A stretch of DNA of 64,000 nucleotides from an uncultured Anaerolineaceae bacterium (GTDB lineage: Bacteria > Chloroflexota > Anaerolineae > Anaerolineales > E44-bin32): assembly GCA_964385355.1 (NCBI GenBank), contig CAYLOO010000003.1, positions 2,879-66,878 on the forward strand, read 5' to 3'. The notes beneath the pieces are model-generated. The model was not told where the DNA came from. It ran no database searches and was given only the letters and a program-made list of their open reading frames with translations. Both the position numbers and the translations under genes were made by a program. Of this stretch, positions 1 through 60,628 are shown in pieces. The first letter of the stretch is position 1; the number at the start of each line of letters is the position of its first letter.

Positions 1-228
1 CTCGCCAGTGATTTACCGGTTTTTCGTGAGATTCTGAATGAGGGGAACGCAGTTTTGCTCCCTCCCAATGATGTAGCGGCGTGGGATCAAGCGCTGAATC
101 AATTGATGGCGGATGATAGCCGCCGGCATTCGCTTGCGGAGAGAGCGGGTAAAGACGCCACTCAATACGACTGGCGTGACCGCGCCAGAAGGCTGCTGGA
201 TGGATTGGAAACAAACGATGCTGCATGA
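1..228 (+). CDS. Glycosyltransferase group 1 (GT4-like), C-terminal fragment; the 5' end lies outside the window
   Basis: Frame +1 is open from nt 1 to TGA 226-228. The translation LASDLPVFREILNEGNAVLLPPNDVAAWDQALNQLMADDSRRHSLAERA... resembles the C-terminal tail of GT4 enzymes. It is absent from the ORF track because it is truncated. Confidence 0.55.
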   Translation, partial: LASDLPVFREILNEGNAVLLPPNDVAAWDQALNQLMADDSRRHSLAERAGKDATQYDWRDRARRLLDGLETNDAA

Positions 229-1579
229 TCTTGGCGCGCGTTTTGGAGCATATTTACGGAAGCGGGAATTCCTATGGCCAGGCTCTCTTCTGCTGCTAGG
301 GATGCCGTTGCGCGCCTGGCTGTGGTTTAGTTATGGATCGATATCCTATGGCGATACAGGATCCTATATGCGTCTGGGGGAAGCCCTCAAAGATCTATCC
401 TTCAGCGGTTATGACGGCACACGTGTCCCCGGCTATCCGGCCTTTCTAGCGCTGCTCGATTTGCAGCCTGATCGTGTGTGGCTCGTGCAGATGCTGTTAG
501 GGTTAATGATATCCATGCTTCTCTACTGGATCACATGGCGGACGACGAACAGTATGGCGCTCGGTTTTGTCGTTGGCGCTCTCTACAATCTAATCCCCGG
601 GCAGTTCCTCTTTGAAGCCAACCTCCTGACGGAAACGCTTACAACGTTCTTTGTCGTTCTAAATCTTTGCCTGTTCGTTTGTTTCACGCGCGTTAGAAGT
701 CCTGCTCGGAGATATAGTATCGTAGTATTACTGGGCGTGGCAATCAGCGTGGTGGGCTTGATCCGTCCTTTGTTTTTCCCATTGACGATATGGTTCCTTC
801 CCTTCGTCTGGCTTGCAGCCAACGGGGATTGGAAAAAAAAGCTGCTGTTCGTGGCGTTGTATTCCCTCGGACCGATAGCCCTGCAGGGCAGCTGGTTGGT
901 CTACATGAAACAGCACTATCACGTACTATCGCCCACAGCAATGGCGGGTTACAGCCTCGTGCAGCATACGGGGGAGTACTTCGAGTTTCTTCCCGATGAG
1001 TACGCTTCTATTCGCGACACCTATATCCACTTCCGGGATGCGCAGATCACTGCGCGCGGGGTGCAGACCAATGCCATTTGGGAGGCGATCCCGGAGATCT
1101 CTAAGGCATCAGGTTTGGGTTTCTATGAGCTCGCGCGCGAGATGCAGCGGCTCTCCTGGTGGTTGATCCGGCATCATCCCGATCTCTATCTAAAGAACGT
1201 AATCGCCGGCTGGATCTCCTTCTGGAAAGCGCCCGTCTATTGGCGTCCAGAGGCGGTACAATCGGTATTCGCAGGGGGAGTCTTGAGTGGGATGGCGACT
1301 GTTGGAAGAGGAATCTCCCTGCTGGCGAATATCCTGTTCCTCGTTCTCAGCGCGTTGGTGGCCGCAAGCGCCAAGTGGCGCCGTAGATTGCAGTTCGATT
1401 TAATTTCATTGGCGGTGGGTGGGATGATCTGGATAATTTCCATCCTGCAAACGCTCCTCGATCATGGCGACAACCCGCGTTTTCTTGTGCCTTTGCAGGT
1501 ATTGGTTATTTACATGGTTGTCCGCAGTCTCTGGTTTTGGAGCAAGGGAAGAGTCGACCTGGAGGTCATTGACCATTGA
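200..1579 (+). CDS. Polytopic membrane protein, GT-C-fold (ArnT/PMT-like) glycosyltransferase candidate
   Basis: Track ORF 113..1579. Its first ~30 codons overlap the preceding CDS, so ATG 200 or ATG 218 is the likelier start. It has many long hydrophobic segments and the first-loop motif YGDTGSYMRLGEAL...RVPGYPAFLALL. Its stop overlaps the next start (TTGA). Confidence 0.5.
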   Translation: MDWKQTMLHDLGARFGAYLRKREFLWPGSLLLLGMPLRAWLWFSYGSISYGDTGSYMRLGEALKDLSFSGYDGTRVPGYPAFLALLDLQPDRVWLVQMLLGLMISMLLYWITWRTTNSMALGFVVGALYNLIPGQFLFEANLLTETLTTFFVVLNLCLFVCFTRVRSPARRYSIVVLLGVAISVVGLIRPLFFPLTIWFLPFVWLAANGDWKKKLLFVALYSLGPIALQGSWLVYMKQHYHVLSPTAMAGYSLVQHTGEYFEFLPDEYASIRDTYIHFRDAQITARGVQTNAIWEAIPEISKASGLGFYELAREMQRLSWWLIRHHPDLYLKNVIAGWISFWKAPVYWRPEAVQSVFAGGVLSGMATVGRGISLLANILFLVLSALVAASAKWRRRLQFDLISLAVGGMIWIISILQTLLDHGDNPRFLVPLQVLVIYMVVRSLWFWSKGRVDLEVIDH

Positions 1580-4498: not shown

Positions 4499-6376
4499 TT
4501 GAAGAGTATCGATCGTTTTGCTCACCGTCTTGTAAGTGTACGTTTCCTGCCAGAAGTTCTCGCTCTTCTGGGTGGAGTAGCTTACTTAATTCACGCCTGG
4601 GGGCATGTGCATGGTCAGGTTTCAGTTATTGACGAAGGGCTCTATCTTTTTAAAGGCTTCCAATTTGCTTTAGGTAATTACCAGCCTTTCCAGGATTACG
4701 GTCCACTAACAAATCACATGCCTTTATCGTTTCTCATTCCAGGGTGGGTGCAAGTCTTATTTGGTGCCGGACTTCGTACAGCACGTTATTACGCTTTGAG
4801 TCTGGGTATTTTAATAGTCGTGGGCTTATGGGTGGCATCACGACGATTTACGGGTCCCTGGATGGCTGCGGTTGGTATATGGGCGGTTGCCCTCAACCCT
4901 GCATTAGTCAAAATTTTCAGTCAAGCGACTTCCCAGGTGCTTGTAGCGGCGATGCTGATTTGGTCACTGGCGCTTACATTAGGTGATGGACGTAAGCCCT
5001 GGCAGCTATTCTTAGGCACACTTCTTGGTGGGTTGATAGCTCTGACACGCATTAATATGGTTCCCTTTCCGCTGCTTCTAATTGCATATATCTTTTGGCA
5101 GCATGGGAGAAAGTCGGGATATTGGAGTCTCATCACAGGTGTTGCGATCGTCCTTTTAGGTCATGCTGTATATTGGCCAGATATCCTGAAATTGTGGGCG
5201 AAGTGGATGCCAGCCTCGCTGACCCCTTTCTTAAATTCATTCCGAGAGACAGCCGGGGGGGAACCGGTGTGGGGTCCGGTTAACTTCCTCGGAAGTCGTT
5301 TTCGGATTTTATTTTCCAGCCTTCGTTTACATCTATTATCAGCCCTTGGCTTGATCAGCTTTTGGTTGGTTTTCCAATTCAATCCGAAGAACCGTGAGGG
5401 GAAAACAGACTTTAAAATTGGTTTGTTTTTGTCTGTACTTTACCTAACCTTGATGACAATGCACATATGGGCATCCCTGGGGTTGGAGTATTGCCCATTT
5501 TGTTTACACAATTATTTCGCATTCTTCCACCTTGCAGGTTTGCTGCTATTCATTCTAATGGGCAAATATGCTCTCAGAAGAACAGCGTCTTTTCGGGGAA
5601 TAGCGCTTATCTTAATTCTAATTTTCGTGCCTATTCTGTTTGGCATGTCGCTTGACTCGAGTCTTAGTGAATCGTTACTCGAAACTCAGGTTCCAAGATT
5701 GTCGAACCAGCGATTGGAGCCGGGGACGGTTTTACTTTTACATGCAATTGAAAGCAAGTACAGTATTACGAGCGATGAAATAATTTCTTGGACTAGTCTT
5801 CTGTTGAACGCAGTTATGATGGGCTTTGCTTCAGTGTTTCTCTATTATGCTGTTAGGGTAGTGTATTATCGAGAAAGGTTTGTCAACAGGAACTTCTTAG
5901 GGGTATTTGTGGGAGCGTTTATTGGGATAGAATTAGTGTTGGCAACGATTGTATTTGGCAACACGTATCGTTCTTATGATTGTGGAAAAGATATTATTAC
6001 GGCGCATGAGAAAGTGGGGGAGTACTTGGCTGAGAGAATACCAGCTGATTCACTAATCTATTGGGGGGTTGGCCGATCTCCAGTGCCCCTCCTGTATCTA
6101 TCGAATGCTATAACTTTCCCACCTCAATTAAACGGGGACTACACGCTAAGAGGTGGAGGTGACTCTGATGAATTATTACGATTTGGATACTGGAATGATC
6201 AATTGGCAAATAATTGGTTAGCGGATGCGGATTATATTATGGTTGAGAAGCGGAATTATAGTTCGACAGTTGCGGGATTCCTTGATCCTTTTCACTATGA
6301 TGAGTTTGAACCAACTCCTCCCACTGATCCATGCCGTGAAGATTCCTCGATCCTGGTTTTTAGGAGAATACCGTGA
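4499..6376 (+). CDS. Polytopic membrane protein, GT-C-fold glycosyltransferase candidate with hydrophilic C-terminal domain
   Basis: 625 aa with a TTG start. First-loop motif VSVIDEGLYLFKG...PLTNHMPLSFLIPG, more than 10 hydrophobic segments, and a soluble tail of about 130 aa. A hand-counted line (5881-5940) is 40% GC, lower than its neighbours. Confidence 0.5.
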   Translation: MKSIDRFAHRLVSVRFLPEVLALLGGVAYLIHAWGHVHGQVSVIDEGLYLFKGFQFALGNYQPFQDYGPLTNHMPLSFLIPGWVQVLFGAGLRTARYYALSLGILIVVGLWVASRRFTGPWMAAVGIWAVALNPALVKIFSQATSQVLVAAMLIWSLALTLGDGRKPWQLFLGTLLGGLIALTRINMVPFPLLLIAYIFWQHGRKSGYWSLITGVAIVLLGHAVYWPDILKLWAKWMPASLTPFLNSFRETAGGEPVWGPVNFLGSRFRILFSSLRLHLLSALGLISFWLVFQFNPKNREGKTDFKIGLFLSVLYLTLMTMHIWASLGLEYCPFCLHNYFAFFHLAGLLLFILMGKYALRRTASFRGIALILILIFVPILFGMSLDSSLSESLLETQVPRLSNQRLEPGTVLLLHAIESKYSITSDEIISWTSLLLNAVMMGFASVFLYYAVRVVYYRERFVNRNFLGVFVGAFIGIELVLATIVFGNTYRSYDCGKDIITAHEKVGEYLAERIPADSLIYWGVGRSPVPLLYLSNAITFPPQLNGDYTLRGGGDSDELLRFGYWNDQLANNWLADADYIMVEKRNYSSTVAGFLDPFHYDEFEPTPPTDPCREDSSILVFRRIP

Positions 6377-7326
6377 AGATCTCCGTTGTTGTTCCCGTAT
6401 ATAACGAGGCCGAAAGCCTGCATCCCCTCTTTCAGGCGATTAATGAGGCATTAGCTGGCTTCTCCTACGAAATCATATTCGTGGATGATGGCTCAAAAGA
6501 TGGGAGTGTCGACATCCTCTTCGAAATTGCTCAAGAAGCGAGGGATATTGTCAGCGTAATTCAATTCCGCAGGAATTTTGGACAGACAGCCGCGATCGCG
6601 GCAGGCCTCGATTATTCGGCTGGAGAGATTATTATTCTCTTGGATGCCGATCTTCAAAATGACCCCGCAGATATCCCCATGCTCGTTGAGAAGATCGATG
6701 AAGGCTATGATGTCGTTTCTGGGTGGCGGGTGGATCGGAAAGATACGCTGATAACCCGCACGATCCCCTCCAGGATGGCGAATTGGTTGATCTCGACAGT
6801 TACGGGTGTCAAATTGCACGATTACGGCTGCACATTGAAGGCGTACCGGAGGGATGTCTTTGAGGGATTCCGCCTTTATGGTGAGATGCACCGCTTCATT
6901 CCAGCGTATGCAGTATCTGTGGGGGCTCGCATCATAGAGGTTCCGGTTCAACACCACCCAAGGCGTTTTGGTAAGACAAAATACGGCTTGAGCCGTACGA
7001 TCAAAGTCCTGCTTGACTTATTCACGGTGAAGTTCCTCATCAGTTATGGGCATAAGCCGATCTACCTCTTTGGTGGCGCAGGCATCCTGCTCATCGTGCC
7101 AAGCGTTCTCATTTTATTCTTCCTCATCGTACGCAGACTGTGGCTTGGAATCTCCATTCTTGGGTCGCCGCTGCTTCAACTCAGTACGATGACTATGATC
7201 ATGGGCTTCCAATCGATCTTAATGGGACTGATAGCGGAGTTATTAGTCCGTATTTATCATGAGTCACAGGCCAAGCCAACGTATTCCATCCGCAAGGTCG
7301 TAGCTCCGTCGCGCTCTGAAGCATGA
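6373..7326 (+). CDS. GT2 polyprenyl-phosphate glycosyltransferase (Dpm1/ArnC/GtrB-like)
   Basis: Motifs KISVVVPVYNEAESL, IFVDDGSKDGS and LDADLQNDP, plus two C-terminal TM helices (IYLFGGAGILLIVPSVLILFFLIV, LSTMTMIMGFQSILMGLIAELLV). The GTG start overlaps the upstream stop (GTGA). Confidence 0.85.
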   Translation: MKISVVVPVYNEAESLHPLFQAINEALAGFSYEIIFVDDGSKDGSVDILFEIAQEARDIVSVIQFRRNFGQTAAIAAGLDYSAGEIIILLDADLQNDPADIPMLVEKIDEGYDVVSGWRVDRKDTLITRTIPSRMANWLISTVTGVKLHDYGCTLKAYRRDVFEGFRLYGEMHRFIPAYAVSVGARIIEVPVQHHPRRFGKTKYGLSRTIKVLLDLFTVKFLISYGHKPIYLFGGAGILLIVPSVLILFFLIVRRLWLGISILGSPLLQLSTMTMIMGFQSILMGLIAELLVRIYHESQAKPTYSIRKVVAPSRSEA

Positions 7327-8303
7327 AGCTGCGCCCCGACTTTTTTTCGCGTAAAAACATCATCAGGGTGATTGGAACCTTTCTCTCCATCGCTCTGCTT
7401 ATTTATCTTCTAAGTCAGCAGGGTTGGAGCGAGATCGTCGATGCTTTACGCCAGATCCCCCCAATCCATTTGGTGCTGGTTGTCATCCTAATGGCGATCT
7501 CCCGGATTTCTGTGGGAGCGCGTTGGTATTCCCTTCTTCGGTCTACAACACCGAATATATCGTTTGCGGAAAGTCTGCGGATGACATTCGCAGGTCTGTT
7601 TGCCGCGAATTTCCTTCCGACGACCATTGGTGGAGATGTCGTTCGTTTAGCAGGAACATTGCCACGCTCAGAAGATCGTGTCGGGAGTGCTGCGTCCATT
7701 GCCGCAGACCGTCTCGTAGGGCTTTCTGGGATGGCGATGGCGATTCCCTTAGGACTCGGTGTATTGATCGATTGGATTCAAACGAACGCAGTTGCTGGGG
7801 GTTTATTCTTACAAGTCGTGAGAATCTCCGGTTTTGCTGTAGCGCTCACATTCAATTGGTCTGACGCCTGGACCAAATTCATCAAGATGTTCCGTCGATT
7901 GATCGACGTGATTGTCATGTGGATTCGCCGTCCGCGCGCCTTGATTGCAGCTTTTGGGTTCACTTGGCTGCATATGGCTTGTTTATTTTCCTTATTATGG
8001 CTGTTGCTTACAGGCATGGGACAGACGATATCATTTCCCATGGTCGCGGGTCTTTGGAGTTTTACGTATCTGATAACTCTCATGCCTTTCTCGATTAATG
8101 GTCTGGGAATCCGCGAAGTATCGATCTCGTATATTTTCACGAACTTGGGTGGCGTTTCGATTCAGAGTGCACTGACACTTGCCCTTATCGTGAGAACATT
8201 GGAAATGATCGCAAGCGTTCCCGGAGTATTTTTCCTCCCGGCCATTCTCTCAAGTGCAAACGGGGGGATTAAAGCCGGGGTTGAAGCGGATGCTTCGCCA
8301 TAG
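7323..8303 (+). CDS. Flippase-like membrane protein (lysyl-phosphatidylglycerol synthase TM-region / UPF0104 family)
   Basis: 326 aa and multi-TM. It carries the GGDVVRL motif after a basic N-terminus, which is typical of this family, and is commonly paired with a GT2. Its ATG overlaps the upstream TGA (ATGA). Confidence 0.65.
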   Translation: MKLRPDFFSRKNIIRVIGTFLSIALLIYLLSQQGWSEIVDALRQIPPIHLVLVVILMAISRISVGARWYSLLRSTTPNISFAESLRMTFAGLFAANFLPTTIGGDVVRLAGTLPRSEDRVGSAASIAADRLVGLSGMAMAIPLGLGVLIDWIQTNAVAGGLFLQVVRISGFAVALTFNWSDAWTKFIKMFRRLIDVIVMWIRRPRALIAAFGFTWLHMACLFSLLWLLLTGMGQTISFPMVAGLWSFTYLITLMPFSINGLGIREVSISYIFTNLGGVSIQSALTLALIVRTLEMIASVPGVFFLPAILSSANGGIKAGVEADASP

Positions 8304-8309
8304 AGGACA

Positions 8310-10298
8310 ATGAGTGTGGAAAACTCTCTGAGCGATCGCCTCACCGGGTTGCGGTTCATTCTCTCTGTGACCATTTGGCTAACACTGGGAGCTGTCGTTG
8401 ATCAGTTTCGATTTGCTCAGGAAATCCAGATCCTACCAGTATCGTGGAAGTGGAGGCTGGCACTTCTCCTGGGTGGAGTAGTACTGGCTGTTGAGATAGC
8501 AACTCTCCTCGTTACCTGGACAGCCCTGAGCGATCCGATCACCCGATGGGCCAATAAAATTGCTTCTTTTGTTGAGCGCCTAGGGGTCCTTCGTTATCCG
8601 ATCCTCGCCTTCCTACTGCTGCTTTTACCATTCTTAGTCATGGGGCCATATGGGTATTATTTTCAATCCATTTGCTTACGAGCCCTGGTCTTCTGGTTCA
8701 TACTCATTTTAAACTCTCTAATCCTTCAAAGTATGCGTCCACATTGGACCTACACGAACATCTTCTTGGGCTTAGCGCTCATGCAAGGTGTGCTTTATCG
8801 CATAGCGGTGTTTTTACCGGATCTCTCCATTTATCCGTTCTCATTGGGATGGTCTGAAGCCAGTAGATATTATTACGCATCCTTATTCTTTTCCGAGCGA
8901 ATCTATGACTTGCAGATGAGCCCAAGTGTGCTTCACCCAACACGCTATCTTCTCCAGTCGATACCATTCTTGTTGCCTGGCTCAGCGCTCTGGATGCACC
9001 GCCTTTGGCAAGTTGTTCTATGGCTTGCAACCACTTTTGGGGCGTCGTATCTGCTGACGAAAAGGCTTAAGCTGACGCGGGGATGGTCAGCTGTACTCGC
9101 GATGGCATGGGCGTTCCTATTCTTTTTCCAGGGACCGGTCTACTACCACCTACAAATTACGATCATCCTTATCTTGTGGTGCTTCGATCGAGATAAACCT
9201 GTGCGTACTTTGGTCGTTGTTCTGGTTGCTTCAGCCTGGGCAGGAATCAGCCGAATCAATTGGTTCCCCGTTCCGGGATTGATCGCTGCGCTGCTGTATT
9301 TCTTTGAGACTCTAAGAGGTAATAAATCAGCAGTACGGTATCTTGCATGGCCAGCTATTTTCGTTTTATCTGGCACAATCTCTGCGTTTCTCAGCCAATC
9401 AGCATATGTAACTCTATCAGGGCAGGACGTAAATCGCTTCACGTCCAGTTTCGGCTCCCAGCTCCTTTGGTACAGATTGCTGCCGAATCCCACCTATCCC
9501 TTAGGGGTGCTGCCGGCGATCTTGCTGGCATCATTGCCGGTTTTACTTCTGATGTTAAATCACTGGCGGTCAGGCAAAGGGACCATAGCTCCGCTTCGCC
9601 TGCTTGGGGTTGTCGCCATCACACTGGTGCTTTTCGGGGGCGGTCTGGTGGTGAGTACGAAAATCGGTGGGGGGAGCAACCTGCATAACCTTGATGCCTA
9701 TCTGGTGGTTCTTGCAGTATCTGGTGCCTATATCTTTGCAGGGGGTATTGAGCCCGAGATGGGTGGTGAGGGCGACGAGTTCTATCCAGCCTTGCCTATA
9801 AAAGGACTCCTGGTTGGCATCCCGATCCTATTTGTTCTTGGTGTTGGATCGACAATCGTTAGCTACGATGCGGGACAAGCACAGAGTGCGCTTGATCTTG
9901 TGCAGGAATATGCACAAGGCGCGGCGATTGCAGAGGGCGAGGTGCTCTTCATCTCTCAAAGGCACTTACTGACTTTCGATTTGGTCCAGGACGTGCCGCT
10001 TATCCCTGAGTTCGAGACTGTCTTCCTGATGGAAATGGCCATGTCGGGGAACCAGGCGTATCTTGAGGATTTTCATGACGACCTGAGAGACGGCAGGTTT
10101 GGGTTGATCATAGTTGCGACTCTTGAGAGAGGATATCAAGGCAGATCTCATGCCTTCGGGGAGGAAAATGACGCCTGGGTGCGGGAGGTGTCCGAGCCGA
10201 TCCTTTGCTACTACACGCCAATAGAAACACTGGATTCGCCCCGATTGCAATTGTTAGCGCCGCGGGCAGAGTCTGAATGGTGCGAGTGGGCGAAGTAA
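8310..10298 (+). CDS. Large polytopic membrane protein with soluble C-terminal domain, GT-C-like candidate
   Basis: 662 aa, with RBS GAGGA before ATG 8310. There are more than 12 hydrophobic segments and then a hydrophilic tail of about 150 aa (VLFISQRHLLTFDL...GLIIVATLERG). The family is not recognised. Confidence 0.4.
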   Translation: MSVENSLSDRLTGLRFILSVTIWLTLGAVVDQFRFAQEIQILPVSWKWRLALLLGGVVLAVEIATLLVTWTALSDPITRWANKIASFVERLGVLRYPILAFLLLLLPFLVMGPYGYYFQSICLRALVFWFILILNSLILQSMRPHWTYTNIFLGLALMQGVLYRIAVFLPDLSIYPFSLGWSEASRYYYASLFFSERIYDLQMSPSVLHPTRYLLQSIPFLLPGSALWMHRLWQVVLWLATTFGASYLLTKRLKLTRGWSAVLAMAWAFLFFFQGPVYYHLQITIILILWCFDRDKPVRTLVVVLVASAWAGISRINWFPVPGLIAALLYFFETLRGNKSAVRYLAWPAIFVLSGTISAFLSQSAYVTLSGQDVNRFTSSFGSQLLWYRLLPNPTYPLGVLPAILLASLPVLLLMLNHWRSGKGTIAPLRLLGVVAITLVLFGGGLVVSTKIGGGSNLHNLDAYLVVLAVSGAYIFAGGIEPEMGGEGDEFYPALPIKGLLVGIPILFVLGVGSTIVSYDAGQAQSALDLVQEYAQGAAIAEGEVLFISQRHLLTFDLVQDVPLIPEFETVFLMEMAMSGNQAYLEDFHDDLRDGRFGLIIVATLERGYQGRSHAFGEENDAWVREVSEPILCYYTPIETLDSPRLQLLAPRAESEWCEWAK

Positions 10299-12545: not shown

Positions 12546-13076
12546 ATGGTGCAAGCAGAGCAATCGGACCGTGAGCTTGGACTGCTTACCGAGATCGAAC
12601 GCGATCCGGATATTACCCAGGCGGGGTTGGCGACTAAACTTGGTGTTGCCGTAGGGACCGTAAATTGGCACCTCAAACGATTGACCGCTAAAGGGTATGT
12701 GAAGGTCAAGCGTGCGGAGCGGAAGAAACTGCGCTATATCATCACGCCGGAAGGGCTTGCCCTGCGTGCTCGATTGACGGTGGCGTATATCGATAATTCA
12801 ATGATGCTCTATCGCCAAGTTAGAGAAGAAGCCCAGCGAATATTATCGACTGCACAGAGGAAAAATGTGTCTGCTGTGCGAATTGTGGGTGACGGAGATA
12901 TCGCAGATATATGCCGTTTGACCTGTCTGGAACTAGGCATCCAGATCGTGGATAGTGAATCAAGGGATCATGTGCCCATAATCATGGTCGAAGGTCGAGA
13001 GATCAATATTATCGACAACAAGACTGGTGAGATTGGCATACCCCAACCAGGCAGTCACATAACACAAGAACTCTAG
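12546..13076 (+). CDS. Winged-helix transcriptional regulator, EPS-associated MarR-like, with extra C-terminal domain
   Basis: The N-terminus LLTEIERDPDITQAGLATKLGVAVGTVNWHLKRLTAKGYVKVKRAERKKLRYIITPEGLALRARL matches my recollection of the EPS-locus MarR family. An extra ~70 aa at the C-terminus (VRIVGDGDIADICRLTCLELGIQIV) belongs to no family I recognise. Confidence 0.65.
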   Translation: MVQAEQSDRELGLLTEIERDPDITQAGLATKLGVAVGTVNWHLKRLTAKGYVKVKRAERKKLRYIITPEGLALRARLTVAYIDNSMMLYRQVREEAQRILSTAQRKNVSAVRIVGDGDIADICRLTCLELGIQIVDSESRDHVPIIMVEGREINIIDNKTGEIGIPQPGSHITQEL

Positions 13077-14996: not shown

Positions 14997-14999
14997 CGA

Positions 15000-47629: not shown

Positions 47630-48268
47630 GTGTATTTATATGGAAAGAAAATATTGTTTCTCGGCGCACATCCCGATGACATTGAATTGGGCTGCGGGGC
47701 ATTACTAGCAAATATCAACAAGCACGTGGACATCATAGCCGTCACGCTTTCAGATAATCAAAAGAACCCCTCCCTTGAGAAAATTGTTGATGAACATTAT
47801 CGCAGCATGGAAATCCTGGGTGTAGGTCCGGAGCAGGTTGTCCTGGGTCCTTTCGAAACACGCAATTTCCCCCGCGATCGACAAGAGATCCTGGAGTTCT
47901 TGTTTGATCTTAATGCCAAACACCACCCGGATATGGTCTTTGTGCACACTCGTGCTGACATCCACCAGGATCACAGCGTGACGACAATGGAAGCTCTAAG
48001 GGCATTCCGGGGCACGACAGTGTTAGGTTTTGATGTGATGCGCAGCAGCTATGGATTTTTCCCGCATTTTCTGATCGAAGTCACACAGGAGGACGTCGAA
48101 AGGAAAGTCGAAGCTCTAGCGGCCTACGAGACGTATAAGGATAAGTATTACTTCTCACCCGAGATTATTCGATCGACCTCTGTGCGCCATGGATCCTTGG
48201 CCGAACGCCCCTTTGCAGAGGGGTTTGACATCTTGCGTGTTATTGGAAACTTTGGGCTCGATGGCTAG
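47630..48268 (+). CDS. PIG-L/LmbE-family N-acetyl-sugar deacetylase
   Basis: Motifs KILFLGAHPDDIELGCG and DIHQDH are typical of this zinc-dependent deacetylase family. GTG start after GGAGAG. Confidence 0.8.
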   Translation: MYLYGKKILFLGAHPDDIELGCGALLANINKHVDIIAVTLSDNQKNPSLEKIVDEHYRSMEILGVGPEQVVLGPFETRNFPRDRQEILEFLFDLNAKHHPDMVFVHTRADIHQDHSVTTMEALRAFRGTTVLGFDVMRSSYGFFPHFLIEVTQEDVERKVEALAAYETYKDKYYFSPEIIRSTSVRHGSLAERPFAEGFDILRVIGNFGLDG

Positions 48269-48346
48269 AATCTACCCATGAATTCAAGATCCGGTCTTCG
48301 CTAGGGACTGCAGTAAAACTCGATCTCCCTCACATATGAAAACTTC

Positions 48347-49351
48347 GTGATGTCTACTTCCGAAAAAACCACTTCCACCAATCCGGCATGTTCGATCGTC
48401 CTTAGAGCATTCAACGAGGAGAAGCATATCGGACGCTTGCTCAGCGGTATTCTTGAGCAGAAGATGTCCGCTGTAGAAATCATCCTGGTTGACTCCGGAT
48501 CTACGGACGCAACGCTGGCTATTGCCTCGCGGTATCCAGTGCGAGTCTTGTCTATTCTTCCTGAAGAGTTCACATTTGGCCGATCGTTGAACATAGGATG
48601 TTCCGCTGCGCAGGGCGAATTCATCGTCCTTGCCAGCGCGCATGTTTATCCGGTTTACCCGGATTGGCTTGAGTGCTTGCTAGCTCCCTTTGAGGATGAG
48701 AAGGTCGCGCTTGTATATGGAAAACAGCGCGGAAACAAGGCAACACGCTTCAGCGAGCATCAAATATATGCGAAGTGGTTCCCGGATGCCTCGAAACCCC
48801 ACCAGGAGATTCCCTTTTGCAATAATGCAAACGCGGCGATCCGCCGCTCCTTGTGGCAGATGCGGCCTTACGACGAAGAGCTGCCTGGTTTGGAGGATCT
48901 TGACTGGGCAACATGGGCGATGGAAGAAGGTTTTCATATTGCATACGTTGCGGAAGCCGAGATCATCCATGTGCACGATGAAACGCCAAGAGCCGTGTTT
49001 AACCGCTACCGCCGCGAGGCGATGGCGCTTCATCGGATCAGACCTCAGGAACAGTTCGGCCTTGCTGACTTTGGGCAGCTCTATATCTCCAATGTGATCA
49101 GCGATATCTGGCATGCTCTTAATCAGGGCGAAGCACTCAACAAACTCTGGGAGATTCTCTGGTTTCGGTGGATGCAATTCTGGGGGACGTACCGAGGCTT
49201 CACGATAGCGGGCTCCCTTACAGGGGAGTTGAAGGAAACATTCTATTACCCACAGAGTTTACGGAAGAGAAAGATATCACGGGAGAGAGAAATTCAACCC
49301 ATCGAATATGGTATTGTTTCTGAAGACCACTCGATTGGGGATACGGAATGA
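48347..49351 (+). CDS. Glycosyltransferase family 2
   Basis: Motifs CSIVLRAFNEEKHIGRLL, IILVDSGSTDAT and FIVLASAHVYP, with LEDLDW further downstream. Confidence 0.8.
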   Translation: MMSTSEKTTSTNPACSIVLRAFNEEKHIGRLLSGILEQKMSAVEIILVDSGSTDATLAIASRYPVRVLSILPEEFTFGRSLNIGCSAAQGEFIVLASAHVYPVYPDWLECLLAPFEDEKVALVYGKQRGNKATRFSEHQIYAKWFPDASKPHQEIPFCNNANAAIRRSLWQMRPYDEELPGLEDLDWATWAMEEGFHIAYVAEAEIIHVHDETPRAVFNRYRREAMALHRIRPQEQFGLADFGQLYISNVISDIWHALNQGEALNKLWEILWFRWMQFWGTYRGFTIAGSLTGELKETFYYPQSLRKRKISREREIQPIEYGIVSEDHSIGDTE

Positions 49352-49424
49352 TTTCTAAATTTTAAGTTTTAGACCCTGATGGCCCAATAGATCAAATGTT
49401 TAAGGGATTAGATGGGAGTTCATT

Positions 49425-50129
49425 GTGACTTCTGAGTCGGCGGTTGGTCCAGGGATAGTGGCTCTCGTGCCCATGCGGCATCACTCTGAACGTGTCCCAG
49501 GAAAAAACTACAGAATGCTCTCCGGCAAACCTCTCTATGGCTATATCATCGAGACGCTTCTAGCATGTCCGGGAATTAATCAGATTGTCGTCAATACAGA
49601 CAGCCCAGTCATCGAAGAAGGTATTTCTGATCAGTACCCGTCGGTCAAGTTGATTCAACGGCCAGCCCATTTATGTGGGGATATGGTTCCGATGAATGAA
49701 ATCCTGCTCTACGACATCGAGCAGGTACCTGCCGATTTCTACCTTCAGACACACAGCACGAACCCCTTATTACGCGCAGAAACGATCTCGCGGGCAATCC
49801 AAACGTTTCTTGCTGATCGAGAACGGACCTCATTATTTTCTGTAACCAGAGTTCAGACTCGGCTATGGTCGGAAGACAGCAAACCCCTGAACCATAATCC
49901 CAAAGAGCTTCTCAGGACCCAGGATCTGCCGCCGGTTTACGAGGAGAACTCATGTATCTATTTATTTAACCGGAACACACTCATCGAAAGCAAGAATCGG
50001 CTTGGGGAGAGGCCACGGTTATTTGAGATTGATCCCTCGGAAGCCTGGGATATCGATGACGAATTGGATATGGTCATTGTAGGATCGTTAGTGGCCGGAA
50101 GAGCGACAATGGATTCGGGAGAGATATAG
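49425..50129 (+). CDS. Acylneuraminate-type cytidylyltransferase (third CMP-sugar synthetase candidate)
   Basis: VALVPMRHHSERVPGKNYRMLSGKPLYGYIIETL, QIVVNTDS and LQTHSTNPL fit the CTP_transf_3 pattern. GTG start after GGGAG. Confidence 0.7.
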   Translation: MTSESAVGPGIVALVPMRHHSERVPGKNYRMLSGKPLYGYIIETLLACPGINQIVVNTDSPVIEEGISDQYPSVKLIQRPAHLCGDMVPMNEILLYDIEQVPADFYLQTHSTNPLLRAETISRAIQTFLADRERTSLFSVTRVQTRLWSEDSKPLNHNPKELLRTQDLPPVYEENSCIYLFNRNTLIESKNRLGERPRLFEIDPSEAWDIDDELDMVIVGSLVAGRATMDSGEI

Positions 50130-54304: not shown

Positions 54305-54619
54305 ATGCTTGCCTTTCTACCCATCTTGGGTTTCTTATGTCTAGTTATTTATCTAGGACAGGGCCGCCCAATCTAGGGTTGGAGGCTGACTTTCTTGTGG
54401 GCTGCTGTAATTTTAGGCACATATAGTGTCCTATCAGTTGAGACTCTTAGCCTTCTCGATACGGTCACGCGAGCTACTCTTACGAACGACTGGCCGCTGC
54501 CACTCCTGAGTCTAAGTAACGCGTTTGGCATCTTATGGCGTCGCGATCGAAGATTGCGTCTCCATGCGTTCACCTTTCATGAAGGGTGGGATTTCGTCTC
54601 TACATGGACGGCACGGTAG
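54305..54619 (+). pseudogene. Decayed duplicate of the 5' end of the 52180..54147 gene (in-frame TAG at 54374-54376, truncated after ~104 codons)
   Basis: A single frame reads MLAFLPILGFLCLVIYLGQGRPI*GWRLTFLWAAVILGTYSVLSVETLSLLDTVTRATL.... This parallels MLLLISILTFLAIFLHLFG...AAFLGAVVVWGVLVTLTLETLSLINAISKIWL of the upstream gene. GAGACTCTTAGCCTT (54440-54454) matches GAGACTCTCAGCCTT (52330-52344) at 14 of 15 nt. Confidence 0.55.
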
Positions 54620-55477: not shown

Positions 55478-57079
55478 GTGCAAAGGTCCAATGACGTGTT
55501 GAGAAAACAGGGAACACGATTATGGGTGGCTTTCGCTCTTATTTTCTTAGGCTTCGTCGTTTTTCGCGTTTCATGGCTTTGCGATGATGCCTATATCACC
55601 TTCCGATCTATTCAAAACTTCATTAATGGATATGGTCTAGTCTATAACGTCGGCGAACGAGTCCAATCGTTCACACATCCACTTTGGATGCTCCTAATAT
55701 CAACCCTCTATTTTGTAGTATCCAAAGTCGCCGGCTTAAATTTCCCCAGCCAATTACCTATGATCGCAATTGCCTTGTCATTGGGGATTAGCTTTTCGGC
55801 TGTACTCATCTTCGCGATTGCTCATAAAGACAAGCCTTCAGCCACCATCCTCGGAATTCTCATCTTAGCCTCTTCTAAGGCTTTTACTGATTTCGCTGCC
55901 GCGGGGCTTGAGAACCCATTGACATATTTTCTCATCGCGGTTTTCTACTGGCGTTTTTTCTTATTGTTTCGTGATGAAAGTTCGATCAGACCTATTGATT
56001 TATTCGTCATGTCGCTGATCGTGGGGCTGTCAACTCTTAATCGGATGGACACGGTACTGATTTTCCTGCCGGCTTTAGTAACACTTTGGTGGTCAACGCC
56101 AAATAAGTTAAGAGGGGCACTTACGATTTTCGCTGGTTTTTTTCCTTTCATCCTGTGGGAGTTGTTCTCGACCTTGTACTACGGCTTCCCCTTCCCTAAT
56201 ACTGCCTATGCCAAACTCAATAGTGGTATCTCAGTCGGGGCTTATTTTTATCAAGGCTTTATGTATTTTCTAAATTCAATCTCGTTGGACCCAATCACCC
56301 TTCTGACGATCATGACAGCAGGTATCGCGCTTATCGGATTAAGAGAGAAACGCTTCCTTCCCGTGATACTTGGTTTATGGCTTTATATTTTTTATATCTT
56401 GCGTATCGGTGGAGACTACATGAGCGGGCGGTTTCTTAGCACGCTTGTGTTCTTGTCCGTGATGACTCTTGCCTATGTGGATCTCGAATGGAATAAATTT
56501 GCCTTACCTGCTTCAATGTTGATCTTGCTTTTTGGAATCAGCACTCAAACAGCGCCATTTCTGAGTGATTCTAGTTATGATGATACCCTCATTGATAACA
56601 ATGCTATTGCCAATGAGAGAGGATTCCGTTATCAAGAATGGGGTTTCCTTCGTATGAACCGCAATAGATTACTCCCTGATTCTCCATACGCGAACGATAA
56701 GTGGACAACCGAAGGATCAAGAGAGATCGTTGAGTCTGGTGCGATTGGTCTGCAGGGGTATATCCAAGGTCCTAATGTCCATATTCTGGATGTGATGGCT
56801 CTGACTGACCCTTTGCTTTCTCGTCTACCAGCTATGGATCGAGTTCATTGGCGCATCGGGCATATTGAGCGTTTGGTCCCTGAAGGTTATCGGGAGACGT
56901 TGCTAACTGGAGAAAATCTGATTTCTGATCCCAACTTGAAAGAATACTACGATTATCTCTCCCTGGTTACTCATAGCCCTATATGGGACCGCAACCGAGT
57001 AATCACGATCTGGAAATTTACGATCGGAGCGTACTCCGACCTTCTGGACTCCTATATCAATGAACAGTCCAATAACTGA
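55478..57079 (+). CDS. Polytopic membrane protein, GT-C-fold glycosyltransferase candidate (tandem paralogue 1, DD motif intact)
   Basis: The GTG start is adjacent to the upstream TAA. Motif WLCDDAYITFRSIQNFINGYGLVYNVGERVQSFTHPLW, and a C-terminal domain (LTDPLLSRLP...VPEGYRETLLTGEN). Confidence 0.5.
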   Translation: MQRSNDVLRKQGTRLWVAFALIFLGFVVFRVSWLCDDAYITFRSIQNFINGYGLVYNVGERVQSFTHPLWMLLISTLYFVVSKVAGLNFPSQLPMIAIALSLGISFSAVLIFAIAHKDKPSATILGILILASSKAFTDFAAAGLENPLTYFLIAVFYWRFFLLFRDESSIRPIDLFVMSLIVGLSTLNRMDTVLIFLPALVTLWWSTPNKLRGALTIFAGFFPFILWELFSTLYYGFPFPNTAYAKLNSGISVGAYFYQGFMYFLNSISLDPITLLTIMTAGIALIGLREKRFLPVILGLWLYIFYILRIGGDYMSGRFLSTLVFLSVMTLAYVDLEWNKFALPASMLILLFGISTQTAPFLSDSSYDDTLIDNNAIANERGFRYQEWGFLRMNRNRLLPDSPYANDKWTTEGSREIVESGAIGLQGYIQGPNVHILDVMALTDPLLSRLPAMDRVHWRIGHIERLVPEGYRETLLTGENLISDPNLKEYYDYLSLVTHSPIWDRNRVITIWKFTIGAYSDLLDSYINEQSNN

Positions 57080-57130: not shown

Positions 57131-58705
57131 ATGGAAAAAAAGAGCAATTCACATCAAGTAATTAAAGTGATCCTGGTTCTTGCATTCCTCATCATCCTGA
57201 TACGAAATGCATGGGTGAGCCAGACGGCGTATTTCCTTTTTCGTTCGATTGAAAATTTCGTCCAAGGATATGGATTGGTTTTTAACCCTGGTGAGCGGGT
57301 ATTGCCTATTAGCCAGCCACTTTGGCCGATTATCCTTGGGGCGGTTTATTCTCTGACGCTTAATGTCTTCCATTACTCAACTCATAGCCAGCTATATTTC
57401 ATAGTTATTTTCTTCTCCATCGCAGTCACGCTCATCACGATCAGTCTATATACCTTTCGCTATTCAAAGCATTTGCTGGTTGTAGTAACCGGTTTTGTCG
57501 TATTAATGTCTTCAAAAGCCTTTGTTGACTATTCCACATCAGGATTCGAGAACCCACTTATCCATCTACTCCTAATCTTAAGTTTTATTGGATACGAGCA
57601 GATGATTAACAGTGCCAATGAAGACGGGAAATGGGTTATCCGGCTACCTGTTTTGATATCTGTGACAGCACTTCTACGATGGGAGGCTGCTCTGCTAGTT
57701 CTCCCCTTGCTTGGTGTGGTATTTGCAAAATCCAGAAATCGTGTGAACATTAATACCAAGCTTGCTGCTTTTCTCCCTTTTCTGTTCTTTCTACTGTTTA
57801 CCTTCCTGTATTACGGCGTAATCGTATCAAATGACCTTATCGCACGGCTGCATTCAGATGTGGGGATCTTGCGATTCATTAGACAGGGAGGCATGTATAT
57901 ATTCCACTCAATTGATTACGACCCTGTCTCAATCCTTGCAATTGTTTTCGCCGGGGTTGGTTCATTCATAATAAAGGATAAGAAAAACACACCGATATTG
58001 ATAGGATTAGCTGCATATTTGATGGTTGTGATTCTCGAGGGGGGCGATTCTCTGGGGGGACGCATGTTGTCTCCGGCGGTATTAGGTGGAGTTCTTCTCC
58101 TTTCAAGGTTTGAAATGCGTCCTTCCCAAGCATGGAAAATGGGGATCGTAGTATTCATCGCATTTGGGATTGCTACGCCCTTATCCCCAATTACGAGCGG
58201 TTTCGATTATGAAAATCCAGACCCCGATCATCGCGGCATCTTCGATGGTCGGGGCCTGGATTACTCGAGGACAGGCCTTCTGAGTATTTATCGCGGCTCC
58301 GTGAATCCCCCTGACTCAGAATGGGCAGGTGACGACTGGCATTTCGACGAGTATGACTCGGTGATGATAGTCGAATGGGGAAAGGGTTTTGATGCTTATC
58401 GTGTAGGTCCGAACGTATATATCCTTCCACTCTCCGGGATTGGTGATTCCCTGCTGGCAAGGTTGCCGGTAGAAGATAAAGTCACCTGGGATATACACAC
58501 GCTTAATCGTAAGGTTCCTGATGGATATGAGGAAACACTTCTTACAGGAGATAATGTGATCGTTTGTGAGCCGATGGCAGAATTCTATGAATCCGTTTTG
58601 AAGATCACAACGGGCGAGCTCTTTTCGCGTGAGAGGATTGCGCTATTGGCTAGAGAGATCGATCCTTTCGAAAGCGCATTCGTGCCACCAGAATGCCTAG
58701 AGTGA
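57131..58705 (+). CDS. Polytopic membrane protein, GT-C-like (tandem paralogue 2, DD replaced by QT)
   Basis: Colinear with 55478..57079: WVSQTAYFLFRSIENFVQGYGLVFNPGERVLPISQPLW, and C-terminal IGDSLLARLP...VPDGYEETLLTGDN. Line 57361-57420 is 32% GC by hand count. Confidence 0.5.
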   Translation: MEKKSNSHQVIKVILVLAFLIILIRNAWVSQTAYFLFRSIENFVQGYGLVFNPGERVLPISQPLWPIILGAVYSLTLNVFHYSTHSQLYFIVIFFSIAVTLITISLYTFRYSKHLLVVVTGFVVLMSSKAFVDYSTSGFENPLIHLLLILSFIGYEQMINSANEDGKWVIRLPVLISVTALLRWEAALLVLPLLGVVFAKSRNRVNINTKLAAFLPFLFFLLFTFLYYGVIVSNDLIARLHSDVGILRFIRQGGMYIFHSIDYDPVSILAIVFAGVGSFIIKDKKNTPILIGLAAYLMVVILEGGDSLGGRMLSPAVLGGVLLLSRFEMRPSQAWKMGIVVFIAFGIATPLSPITSGFDYENPDPDHRGIFDGRGLDYSRTGLLSIYRGSVNPPDSEWAGDDWHFDEYDSVMIVEWGKGFDAYRVGPNVYILPLSGIGDSLLARLPVEDKVTWDIHTLNRKVPDGYEETLLTGDNVIVCEPMAEFYESVLKITTGELFSRERIALLAREIDPFESAFVPPECLE

Positions 58706-59086
58706 ATAGAAAACGGAAATTATGTGTCCATGTACCATAGGCTTCATTAAATTATGAAAAGCTTCCTGACATTGAAGGTTCATGCGGCAGTAAGATAGAA
58801 TCACGACACTATTTCTGCAAGCAGATTTGAATAAGAGATAACTCAAGATCTGCGTTGGAAGCTAACGAATATTTCAATCGCAAATCGGACCCGATCCGCC
58901 ATCATCAAATATAATGATTATGACATTAGCAACCATTCATAAGGTAGGTGGGTTGGGAACCATGGCGTCCTCCTTCTGGAGGCAAGCATGTGGTATGCGT
59001 TGTTTTTAGGTGGGTCAGAGTTATCATGGTTCTGATAGCAAGTATTCACCATCCCTCTTAGTACCAAGTAATGAGGTGTACGGCAT

Positions 59087-60628
59087 ATGCATGACAATAA
59101 GCTATTGATACAGGCATGGACCTCGTCAGCATGGAATTCCTCGAGGACCTTGTTGTTCTTCGTTGTTGTAGCGATCTTCGCTGGTGGTCTTGGATTGAGA
59201 ATGTTAGATCTTACAGATCCACCTTTGGACTTTCACCCATCTCGTCAACTTTACGCATACACAAATGCTCGTGGACTCTATTATCAGATAACGCCGTCGG
59301 ATACCTCTCAAGTACGCGAAAGCGCCATTGAGGCGTGGAAATCAACCGATCACTATGAACCGCGTATCTTTGAGGGTTTGGTCGCCGGATTCTATTTTCT
59401 TGCGGGAGGGGAACACTTTTGGATTGCACGCATCATCGCATCAATCTTCTGGCTAATAGGGGGTTGGTTCCTATTTCTCCTAGCGAAGCGCGCAACGAAT
59501 TGGGATGGAGCGCTGTTGGCGGTTGCTTACTATCTATTCTTACCTTTTTCGATAATTGGGAGTCGGTCATTCCAACCTGACGTCCTGATGGTCATGTTGA
59601 TGATGATCACGGCTTTTTGTCTATATCGTTGGAGCGAGGAGCATACCTGGAAATGGGCCTTAACCTCAGGGATCTTCGGAGGTTTGACCATTTTATCAAA
59701 GGCACAAGGTGTATTCGCGGTAGCTGGAATGGCTTTTTTTGTGACGATGATGGGGAAGGGGCTCAAGCGGACATTAACGGACTGGCAGGTTTGGGTCATG
59801 GGTTTGCTCATGATAGGTATACCGGGCTTGTATTACCTAGGACCCTATCGCTCTGCCGCCGTAGGCTATTTCAACAACTTTACAATTGGGATGTCTGGGT
59901 TACTCAAGGATCCGGGTTTCTTCGTGCGATGGGCGAATTTCATCCATACCTTTATGGATTTTGCCGTCGTGGTTTTAAGCCTGATGGGCACGCTTCTTAT
60001 GCCGAAAAAGGGCAAGGCGATCGCATTAGGTTTATGGGTGGGATATGTCATGTTAGGCCTCTTTTTCCCATGGCAGATTCCGACGCATGATTATTACAGT
60101 CTCCCTTTAATTCCAACGGTGGCTTTCGGGTTGGCCCCCATCGGGGCGTTGCTATTTCATGCAATCAGGAAGCAAAATAGACTTTGGCGGTGGGCTTTTG
60201 TGATTGTATGTCTTGCTGCGATTGCTTATCCAGCTTGGCATGCACGATCAGGGCTATTAGGAAAGGATTACCGGAACGAACCTGCTGCTTGGAGAAACAT
60301 GGGCGACGAGCTTCCCCGTGATGGTGAGATCATTGCGTTGACGCATGATTATGGGATGCGTTTATTGTATTGGGGGTACACGCCAGTAAGGCTCTGGCCC
60401 TACCAAGCGGATTTCCAATTGCATCTTGCGCGTGGTGGTAATCTGTCACCAGAAGTACGGTCTTATTTCGATGATATGACAGGGGGGTCGAGGTACTTCC
60501 TTGTAACGGCGTACAACGAATTCGACGCTCAGCAACAAGTAAAAGAAATCCTCACAACTGAATATCCGCTCATACAACGGGGAGATGGATATATGCTCTT
60601 CGATCTCTCCCAATCGAAGATAGACTAA
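59087..60628 (+). CDS. Polytopic membrane protein, ArnT/GT39/GT83-like GT-C glycosyltransferase candidate
   Basis: 513 aa. Motifs PPLDFHPSRQLYAYTNARGLYY...YEPRIFEGLVAGFYFL and IIASIFWLIGGWFLFLLAKR, with a soluble C-terminal domain (IIALTHDYGMRLLYWGYTP). Confidence 0.55.
   Translation: MHDNKLLIQAWTSSAWNSSRTLLFFVVVAIFAGGLGLRMLDLTDPPLDFHPSRQLYAYTNARGLYYQITPSDTSQVRESAIEAWKSTDHYEPRIFEGLVAGFYFLAGGEHFWIARIIASIFWLIGGWFLFLLAKRATNWDGALLAVAYYLFLPFSIIGSRSFQPDVLMVMLMMITAFCLYRWSEEHTWKWALTSGIFGGLTILSKAQGVFAVAGMAFFVTMMGKGLKRTLTDWQVWVMGLLMIGIPGLYYLGPYRSAAVGYFNNFTIGMSGLLKDPGFFVRWANFIHTFMDFAVVVLSLMGTLLMPKKGKAIALGLWVGYVMLGLFFPWQIPTHDYYSLPLIPTVAFGLAPIGALLFHAIRKQNRLWRWAFVIVCLAAIAYPAWHARSGLLGKDYRNEPAAWRNMGDELPRDGEIIALTHDYGMRLLYWGYTPVRLWPYQADFQLHLARGGNLSPEVRSYFDDMTGGSRYFLVTAYNEFDAQQQVKEILTTEYPLIQRGDGYMLFDLSQSKID

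Follow-up and report, generated by a model that had tools for sequence, protein, structure and literature searches.

The 64-kb stretch of DNA analysed here (its whole length is referred to as the window) comes from contig CAYLOO010000003.1 of an uncultured member of the Anaerolineales (Chloroflexota), and it is part of a very large locus for envelope-glycan biosynthesis. Twelve of its approximately 52 genes encode large polytopic membrane proteins, together covering 20.4 kb or 32% of the window, a density that is no chance pattern. Judged from their sequences, all twelve encode GT-C-fold, membrane-embedded glycosyltransferases, each with independent support. Most likely, their predicted function is to decorate or extend, on the outer side of the membrane, an envelope glycan that an ATP-binding cassette (ABC) transporter exports. 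Every gene in the window but one lies on the + strand, intergenic gaps are short, and the closest homologues of three window proteins are proteins from metagenome-assembled genomes (MAGs) of Anaerolineales or Anaerolineae. The twelve genes had been proposed in an earlier reading made from the letters of the DNA (the sequence-only reading), and all of them were recovered in the list of + strand open reading frames (ORFs) with the same ends. They are named here by their first nucleotide (nt), with lengths in amino acids (aa):

200 to 1579, + strand: GT-C-like, conserved core, 459 aa
1576 to 3156, + strand: GT-C (PMT_2-type), conserved core, 526 aa
4499 to 6376, + strand: GT-C (PMT_2-type), accessory, 625 aa with a 140-aa C-terminal domain
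8310 to 10298, + strand: predicted GT-C fold, family without annotation, conserved core, 662 aa
10363 to 12402, + strand: predicted GT-C fold, second family without annotation, conserved core, about 674 aa
33360 to 34811, + strand: GT-C (PMT_2-type), variable region, 483 aa
35167 to 36723, + strand: GT-C (PMT family), 518 aa with a 120-aa C-terminal domain
39102 to 40733, + strand: GT-C, old paralogue of 35167, 543 aa
52180 to 54147, + strand: GT-C (PMT_2) with four extra N-terminal transmembrane segments, 655 aa, NADSLLYH at residue 128
55478 to 57079, + strand: AftB-like GT-C, 533 aa with a 174-aa C-terminal domain
57131 to 58705, + strand: AftB-like paralogue without the DD motif, 524 aa
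59087 to 60628, + strand: GT-C (PMT_2), 513 aa with a 129-aa C-terminal domain

Starts, topology and motifs of the twelve proteins

Three of the starts differ from the longest-ORF starts, and each is the better choice: the gene upstream of 200 (longest-ORF start 113) ends at nt 228; a 100%-identical database protein (P0241) of 33360 (longest-ORF start 33327) has 483 aa; and the orthologue of 35167 (longest-ORF start 35113) called in the related locus L081 has 518 aa. As homologues of 10363 are 674 aa long, the true start of this gene is probably 5 codons downstream. The sequence-only reading had described proteins of 460-680 aa with many hydrophobic segments. We obtained 459-679 aa with 8-13 segments each, the transmembrane counts being those of a crude Kyte-Doolittle hydropathy scan. 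Hydrophilic C-terminal domains, which had been noted for many of the proteins, are present in 9 of the 12 as tails of 120-175 aa, and no significant similarity between them was detected (hhalign, best probability 1.7-8.9%).

Seven acidic/aromatic motifs had been quoted, and all are present: IDEGLY in 4499, GDSVYY in 35167, PDSTRY in 39102, YDTLDY in 33360, CDDAYITFRS in 55478, NADSLLYH in 52180 and FDDRKN in 10363. Their proposed position in the first loop does not hold for 10363 and 52180, where four N-terminal hydrophobic segments lie ahead of the motif. The equivalent motif in 8310, GWSEASRYYYAS, comes after five hydrophobic segments, and its E183 is invariant in the family alignment.

Assignment to the GT-C fold

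Proteins were compared with the GT-C pattern of about 7-13 transmembrane helices and a conserved acidic residue, essential for catalysis, at the tip of JM1 in the first loop outside the membrane. In the predicted topology, the acidic residue of the first outward-facing loop is kept in eleven of the twelve proteins. After alignment, an acidic residue proved invariant in all six family alignments, while 57131 lacks the acidic motif. Invariant positions are D52, R75, E139 and E145 in the 200 family (59 sequences, with D52 still invariant down to 22% identity), D104, R108 and D109 in the 1576 family, D45 and E46 in the 4499 family, and D130 within IFDDRKN in the 10363 family. For 33360, 35167, 39102, 52180 and 59087, the motif was seen in the single sequence only.

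Matches to Pfam glycosyltransferase models were obtained for several of the proteins, with gathering cutoffs of 22.7 bits for PMT and 26.1 bits for PMT_2. The PMT_2 score was 65.6 bits for 59087 (E 8e-18) and 27.2 bits for 52180, just over the cutoff, and 35167 passed both cutoffs (PMT, 32.5 bits; PMT_2, 26.6 bits). The latter protein also matched the LA_3751/LA_3752 family model of NCBIfam (E 1.9e-10), and its orthologue in L081 carries the PF02366 annotation. Two further proteins gave sub-threshold PMT_2 scores. These are 4499 (22.4 bits), for which 17 of 19 orthologues match PMT_2 (best E 1.3e-9), and 33360 (20.8 bits), whose full-length homologues (40-46% identity) carry PF13231 or PF02366 and are in some cases named ArnT-like. 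Orthologues also link 1576 to PMT_2 (15 of 25 match; best E 1.1e-8). No Pfam match was obtained for the 200, 1576, 8310, 10363, 39102 and 55478 proteins themselves, 57131 gave just a weak Glyco_transf_22 match (16.6 bits), and eight of the twelve had no match of any kind in NCBIfam. Searches of the PDB returned no GT-C entry for the profiles of the 8310, 200, 1576, 4499 and expanded 200 families or for the single sequences 59087 and 35167; among the queries, only 55478 found one (AftB).

The weakest GT-C case is 200. Its family comprises 1120 representative clusters (exhaustive search with a single-protein query), and PMT_2 was matched by 2 of 25 orthologues. In family-level hhalign comparisons, the probability of a match was 93% with the 33360 family, 91% with the 4499 family and 90% with 35167/39102, and the matches are colinear across the N-terminal 170-220 columns.

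Structure comparison covered 8310 and 10363. No Pfam or NCBIfam model matched 8310, whose at least 2773 homologue clusters are all named hypothetical, and 10363 is likewise annotated as hypothetical, apart from a weak DUF2298 match in just 3 of 30 family members. AlphaFold2 (AF2) models from 30-sequence alignments had a predicted local distance difference test score (pLDDT) of 87 and a predicted template modelling score (pTM) of 0.87 for 8310, and a pLDDT of 88 and a pTM of 0.91 for 10363. Both models show at least 12 long helices followed by an alpha/beta C-terminal domain. The top Foldseek hits of the 8310 model were AftA (8if8; E 9.6e-4, TM-score 0.40-0.42) and ArnT (5f15/5ezm; TM-score 0.35-0.43), with probabilities of 0.99-1.00, and only these two reached a probability near 1. 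For 10363, the best nine hits were DPY19, AglB, AftA, PglB and ArnT, each with a probability of 1.00 and TM-scores of 0.27-0.46; at rank 10 the probability falls to 0.08. On the strength of these models, we assign the 8310 and 10363 families to the predicted GT-C fold.

None of the twelve proteins was placed in a Wzy/O-antigen-ligase, flippase or permease family by Pfam or NCBIfam. The scan with Wzy, ligase and MOP models used E ≤ 0.01 for all twelve and E ≤ 10 for the seven without a match or with a weak one. Since no rival family matched and the acidic residue is invariant, the two outcomes that the sequence-only reading had named as speaking against a GT-C identity (membership of other families and loss of the first-loop acidic residue) were not encountered, 57131 excepted.

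Paralogue pairs and the AftB-like proteins

The two paralogue pairs recognised previously, 35167/39102 and 55478/57131, are real. The term “local expansion” overstates the case, since the duplicates are old. BLASTP gave 24% identity over 520 aa for the first pair (E 7e-35; phmmer E 6e-42; hhalign 99.6%) and 32% identity over 511 aa for the second (E 1e-74). Other pairs were not detected by BLASTP or phmmer, apart from 33360 and 35167 (BLASTP E 5e-4), and in the first round of all-against-all hhalign only the two paralogue pairs plus 200 and 4499 (67%) stood out. A recent common origin of all twelve was considered and rejected, as this comparison links only a few pairs.

The 55478 protein resembles AftB over its N-terminal part, matching NCBIfam model NF041481 (AftB) at positions 9-284 of 633 (E 3.7e-24, 84.8 bits) and the PDB entry 9dlf (AftB) with an E of 4.2e-20; its D36-D37 pair is aligned with D61-D62 of AftB. 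In the AftB of M. chubuense, D62 is the catalytic residue, and the D62A substitution abolishes activity (PMC12041299). The match of 57131 to NF041481 is weaker (E 7e-7, 27.7 bits). Because both proteins score far under the equivalog cutoff of the model (1050 bits), we name them AftB-like GT-C proteins rather than AftB.

Where 55478 has D36-D37, 57131 has Q-T in the BLASTP alignment, and the rest of the protein is intact. To judge by its sequence, 57131 is probably a non-catalytic partner of 55478 that has kept the fold. It may be a natural pseudo-glycosyltransferase directly beside the DD-bearing copy.

A decayed thirteenth copy had also been mentioned, with no coordinates given. The sole candidate is a 74-aa ORF, and the evidence for it is weak:

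54395 to 54619, + strand: candidate remnant of a 52180-like gene, 74-aa ORF aligned with residues 37-77 of the 52180 protein

Its alignment score against 52180 is 59, compared with 32.9 +/- 5 (maximum 49) for 100 shuffles. No further decayed copies were found when the window was searched with the twelve proteins by tblastn.

Donor supply

The sequence-only reading had called both the acceptors and the donors of the twelve enzymes unknown. For the donors this no longer holds entirely, as two ArnC/GtrB-type synthases and a flippase-like protein adjoin GT-C genes:

6373 to 7326, + strand: ArnC/GtrB-type polyprenyl-phosphate glycosyltransferase, two C-terminal transmembrane segments
7323 to 8303, + strand: flippase-like membrane protein (LPG_synthase_TM / TIGR00374), Pfam E 1.2e-32
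36808 to 37821, + strand: second polyprenyl-phosphate glycosyltransferase, AglJ/ArnC/PgfS-like GT2, two C-terminal transmembrane segments

Two C-terminal transmembrane segments are typical of polyprenyl-phosphate sugar synthases. Full-length matches of 6373 were obtained to the structures of ArnC (9hwj, E 4e-63) and GtrB (5ekp, E 9e-40), and its score against the NCBIfam ArnC model was 240 bits. The 36808 protein, which is 29% identical to 6373 over 311 aa, matches the NCBIfam models AglJ, ArnC and PgfS over their full length (E 1e-22 to 1e-24). The flippase-like protein scores 62.5 bits against TIGR00374 (cutoff 43.2), and nothing in the window matched GtrA, ArnE/F or MATE. As genomic context, the two synthases and the flippase-like protein beside GT-C genes suggest a putative polyprenyl-phosphate-linked donor that would be used at the outer face of the membrane. 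Given the tight linkage with gmd and fcl, a 6-deoxyhexose donor is conceivable, which is speculation.

Other genes of the locus

The glycan exporter of the locus is encoded in its conserved part:

14136 to 16265, + strand: Wzm/Wzt polysaccharide ABC transporter, with the permease at 14136-14996 (ABC2_membrane) and the ATPase at 15000-16265 (ABC_tran and Wzt_C), by Pfam

The Wzt_C match of the ATPase (30.8 bits) is slightly above the cutoff (30.4). The window also encodes a GDP-mannose dehydratase (Gmd, by Pfam) and a GDP-fucose synthase (Fcl; 299 bits, NCBIfam), two NeuB proteins, three CMP-sugar synthases and one PseB-like dehydratase. Besides the GT-C proteins, its transferases include KpsC/S-like and MptE/WaaZ-like proteins, seven GT2 proteins and one GT4 protein. 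Six methyltransferases, one sulfotransferase, a MarR regulator and a Wzz-like protein are encoded as well.

At least two separate nonulosonic-acid modules can be recognised, within 18808-27642 and 42961-50129. NeuB is encoded at 21599 and 44204, the PseB-like protein at 18808, and the CMP-sugar synthases at 25924, 42961 (a fusion with a HAD domain) and 49425. The transferases that go with these modules, or chain terminators recognised by Wzt_C, may be the KpsC/S-like proteins (16196 and 45094) and the MptE/WaaZ-like protein (54650). The sulfotransferase gene occupies 41823-42899, and methyltransferase genes start at 17879, 20677, 26731, 38018 (- strand), 46815 and other positions; their presence suggests that the glycan is sulfated and methylated. 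The neighbouring soluble GT2 genes 60635 and 61739 (window positions 60635-62581) are paralogues with 44% identity, and 28605 and 29810 are 37% identical, showing that tandem duplication in the locus affects cytoplasmic transferases too.

At the right edge, directly after the Wzz-like gene (62700-63476), a TTG-start ORF at 63687 runs off the end of the window (64000), encoding 104 aa or more, in which three or more segments are hydrophobic. By its sequence it is a candidate for a further polytopic membrane protein, either another GT-C or a Wzy/ligase-type protein, and its position means that the cluster extends past the window.

Conservation of the module in Anaerolineae

Relatives of 8310 occur in at least 450 species-representative genomes, and a homologue is carried by the cultured Anaerolinea thermophila (L069). 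Eighty of the related loci, all from Chloroflexota MAGs, were compared, and presence was counted in 41 full-length related loci. The recurring gene order is 200, 1576, gmd, (4499), the ArnC-like GT2, the flippase-like gene, 8310, 10363, MarR, fcl, wzm and wzt, continuing with a KpsC/S-like gene, a methyltransferase gene and a PseB-like gene. The counts were:

Flippase-like 7323: 40 of 41 related loci, directly upstream of the 8310 orthologue in 36 of 41
wzm/wzt: 37 of 41
fcl: 36 of 41
gmd: 32 of 41
1576: 30 of 41
ArnC-like GT2: 26 of 41
200: 22 of 41
10363: 17 of 41
4499: 8 of 41

Five of the GT-C genes (200, 1576, 4499, 8310 and 10363) belong to an Anaerolineae-wide module, and four of them are common in the related loci. 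These loci carry 1-6 large polytopic ORFs per 22 kb (mean 3.5), so GT-C clustering is a trait of the class and not peculiar to the window. The MarR-family regulator (12546-13076) sits in the middle of the core, between 10363 and fcl, and keeps this position in 25 of 41 loci. In L006 and about 40 related loci, a 456-aa polytopic ORF (L006:1357-2727 and its orthologues) lies two genes upstream of the 200 orthologue. It was considered as a further GT-C and dropped, as it has no similarity to the twelve; by eye it is a MOP/Wzx-type candidate, and it had no PDB match.

The first 22 kb of the window are colinear with L006 at 87-96% protein identity. The closest loci, L006 and L003, lack 4499, and there the GT2 gene comes directly after gmd. 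The best orthologue of 4499 is 44% identical, compared with about 90% for its neighbours, and its GC content at third codon positions (GC3) is 0.42, compared with about 0.55 in the surrounding genes. In all probability 4499 is an accessory gene that was inserted here.

The seven GT-C genes beyond 33 kb had no counterparts in the compared related loci. The part of the locus where they lie is variable, its GC content dropping from approximately 0.51-0.53 elsewhere to 0.42-0.47 in the segments that hold them, and they probably serve for strain-specific decoration. The order from a CMP-sugar synthase gene through the homologues of 33360, 35167 and 36808 is also found in L081, an independent ENA assembly, which argues against a chimeric contig. 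This assembly comes from a relative (85% identity) in which the sequence just upstream of the 33360 homologue has gained a gene for a WD40 beta-propeller and two fragments of GFO/IDH/MocA type (L081:7611-9900), insertions which mark the junction as a rearrangement hotspot.

Proposed role of the locus and rival explanations

The unusually elaborate extracytoplasmic glycosylation stage suggested earlier is supported by the twelve GT-C genes, which no other family fits. We propose the following route. In the cytoplasm, soluble GT2, GT4 and KpsC/S-like transferases would build a glycan chain on a polyprenyl carrier, drawing on nucleotide sugars that the locus itself provides for, GDP-fucose and CMP-nonulosonic acids among them, with methyl and sulfate groups being added. 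Wzm/Wzt would export the chain, the Wzt protein bearing a C-terminal carbohydrate-binding domain. In parallel, 6373 and 36808 would load single sugars onto polyprenyl phosphate, and the flippase-like 7323 protein, perhaps with others, would carry these sugars across the membrane on their lipid. On the outer face, each GT-C enzyme would be responsible for one particular residue or linkage of the exported glycan. The C-terminal soluble domains would probably hold the acceptor, as in EmbC, AftD and GT136, for which C-terminal acceptor- or carbohydrate-binding domains on GT-C enzymes have been described (PMC11127046).

Taken as a whole, we consider it probable that this is an envelope-glycan locus with GT-C enzymes acting outside the membrane on an exported glycan, even though several points weigh against it. 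These are: that the outward-facing position of the motifs comes from crude hydropathy and secondary-structure strings; that sequence profiles of five families found no GT-C entry in the PDB; that the Foldseek TM-scores of the modelled 8310 and 10363 proteins are modest (0.32-0.46); that two lipid-sugar synthases and one flippase-like gene stand against twelve GT-C genes, five of which adjoin neither kind of gene; that the window holds no UbiA/DPPR-synthase-type gene to supply a pentofuranose donor to the AftB-like pair; that a second assembly route is hinted at by the Wzz-like 62700 protein together with the partial polytopic ORF on the right edge; that the activity, donor and acceptor of the twelve enzymes and their close relatives are predictions from sequence; and that the acceptor could be a protein for some copies, as PMT-type enzymes can glycosylate proteins.

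The last of these points leads to a different explanation for part of the set, namely that the PMT/PMT_2-type copies (above all 35167, 39102, 33360, 59087 and 52180) are protein O-glycosyltransferases which, like actinobacterial Pmt, use polyprenyl-phosphate sugars to modify secreted or envelope proteins such as those of an S-layer or sheath. PMT and PMT_2, their best-matching family models, are indeed those of protein O-mannosyltransferases, the genes adjoin one for a polyprenyl-phosphate sugar synthase (36808) just as Pmt depends on Ppm1, and the structural neighbours of 10363 include the protein C-mannosyltransferase DPY19 and oligosaccharyltransferases. However, PMT_2 is a catch-all that covers ArnT-like lipid and glycan transferases too. 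Moreover, their surroundings are those of a polysaccharide locus (Wzm/Wzt, GT2, GT4 and nucleotide-sugar pathways), and the window has no obvious gene for a target protein. We regard protein glycosylation as unlikely.

A second alternative takes some copies as polymerases, ligases or scaffolds that would join blocks made beforehand, fix the completed glycan to the wall or keep partner proteins together, with the twelve forming a multi-subunit assembly machine instead of catalysing twelve transfer steps. It would accommodate the loss of the catalytic DD pair in the otherwise intact 57131 protein directly after its DD-bearing paralogue, the Wzz-like chain-length protein and partial ORF mentioned above, and the families of 8310 and 10363, which have no functional annotation. 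Yet the acidic residue is kept in eleven of the twelve and invariant in family alignments, Pfam scans of the twelve gave no Wzy_C or O-antigen-ligase match, and the structural neighbours of 8310 and 10363 are all transferases, making such a machine very unlikely. An assembly artefact, in which a MAG contig joins glycan loci of different strains or organisms, is extremely improbable: the fall in GC over the segments with seven GT-C genes would fit it, as would the window proteins 59087 and 8310, which were traced to no contig in the gene-position index, but the colinearity of the first 22 kb with L006 and the order kept in L081 speak against it, as do the single strand for all but one gene with short gaps, and the low GC3 of the hydrophobic accessory genes also fits horizontal acquisition.

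Returning to transfer onto an exported glycan, a more far-reaching version can be formulated. The conserved module would build a class-wide structural cell-wall heteropolysaccharide, a functional analogue of arabinogalactan, that is largely assembled outside from polyprenyl-phosphate sugars (possibly a polyprenyl-phosphate 6-deoxyhexose such as fucose); 8310 and 10363 would represent two new GT-C (CAZy) families; and 57131 would pair with its active neighbour as a regulatory pseudo-glycosyltransferase. We put this forward tentatively, as it is rather unlikely to hold in full.

The GT-C enzymology itself is conventional; the density of twelve divergent genes is unusual, and the assignment of two large families to the fold is new. 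To our knowledge, this locus is the densest such cluster. Anaerolineae abound in sediments and soils as well as in digesters and wastewater plants, yet the chemistry of their multilayered envelope has, as far as we know, hardly been described. No paper dealing with GT-C enzymes from Anaerolineae or Chloroflexota turned up in our literature searches, and the envelope polymer implied here for Anaerolineae was not found described in the searchable literature. The conserved module points to a specific envelope-glycan route in this class and names its candidate genes. The 8310 family (at least 2773 clusters, with relatives in at least 450 of the scanned species genomes) and the 10363 family receive a first, model-based fold assignment. 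Further, twelve divergent GT-C enzymes in one locus would offer a compact panel for following the evolution of donor and acceptor specificity, and 57131 beside the intact 55478 amounts to a natural knockout of the catalytic motif.

Comparison with known systems

One set of relatives is formed by Pfam PMT_2 (PF13231) and PMT (PF02366), GT-C enzymes of the ArnT-like and protein O-mannosyltransferase-like kinds that correspond to GT83 and GT39 in CAZy. The N-terminal core of the window proteins fits these models over approximately 150 residues, with the acidic residue after the first core helix. Three of the proteins pass a cutoff, and four more are linked to the models via orthologues, homologues or a paralogue. 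As for differences, most copies are at or below the threshold, 8310 and 10363 give no match, and 8310, 10363 and 52180 have four or five extra N-terminal hydrophobic segments before the motif.

Three-component systems offer a second parallel, such as GtrA/GtrB/Gtr* of Shigella and Salmonella, ArnC/ArnEF/ArnT, and the PPPRS, MATE flippase and GT136 of Citrobacter youngae (PMC11127046). As in these systems, a synthase (6373), a flippase-like protein (7323) and a GT-C protein (8310) are encoded side by side. A further shared trait is the setting in a locus that depends on an ABC transporter, and the C-terminal soluble domains of the window proteins resemble the carbohydrate-binding module of GT136. 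However, the candidate flippase is of the TIGR00374 / LPG_synthase_TM type and not GtrA, ArnE/F or MATE, and several GT-C enzymes seem to depend on a single synthase. In the known systems, one GT-C attaches one side-chain sugar, compared with twelve GT-C proteins in the window; and its module is a class-wide conserved core, not a serotype-converting accessory.

By analogy, the closest system in logic is the assembly of mycobacterial arabinan in arabinogalactan and lipoarabinomannan (AftA-D, EmbA/B/C, Wzm-Wzt for galactan export and decaprenyl-phosphate arabinose), a comparison already drawn in the sequence-only reading and one that we find apt. There, several GT-C enzymes act in series on an ABC-exported glycan with a polyprenyl-phosphate monosaccharide donor, which is the role predicted here. 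In both cases, GT-C genes are clustered with wzm/wzt, as in the arabinogalactan cluster, and some of the enzymes have extracytoplasmic C-terminal domains. Moreover, 55478 and 57131 are sequence homologues of AftB, and 8310 is nearest to AftA in predicted fold. The differences are: that the host of the window belongs to the Chloroflexota; that the locus has twelve GT-C genes, compared with about five in the core mycobacterial cluster; that the AftB match of 55478 spans only the N-terminal ~280 residues and reaches 84.8 bits against a cutoff of 1050; and that DPPR synthase and DprE1/E2 are both missing from the window, its donor synthases being GT2 proteins of the ArnC/GtrB type rather than of the UbiA type. 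The donors are therefore probably hexoses or modified hexoses, not arabinofuranose. Multi-GT-C assembly lines of the mycobacterial type would then occur outside the Actinomycetota as well.

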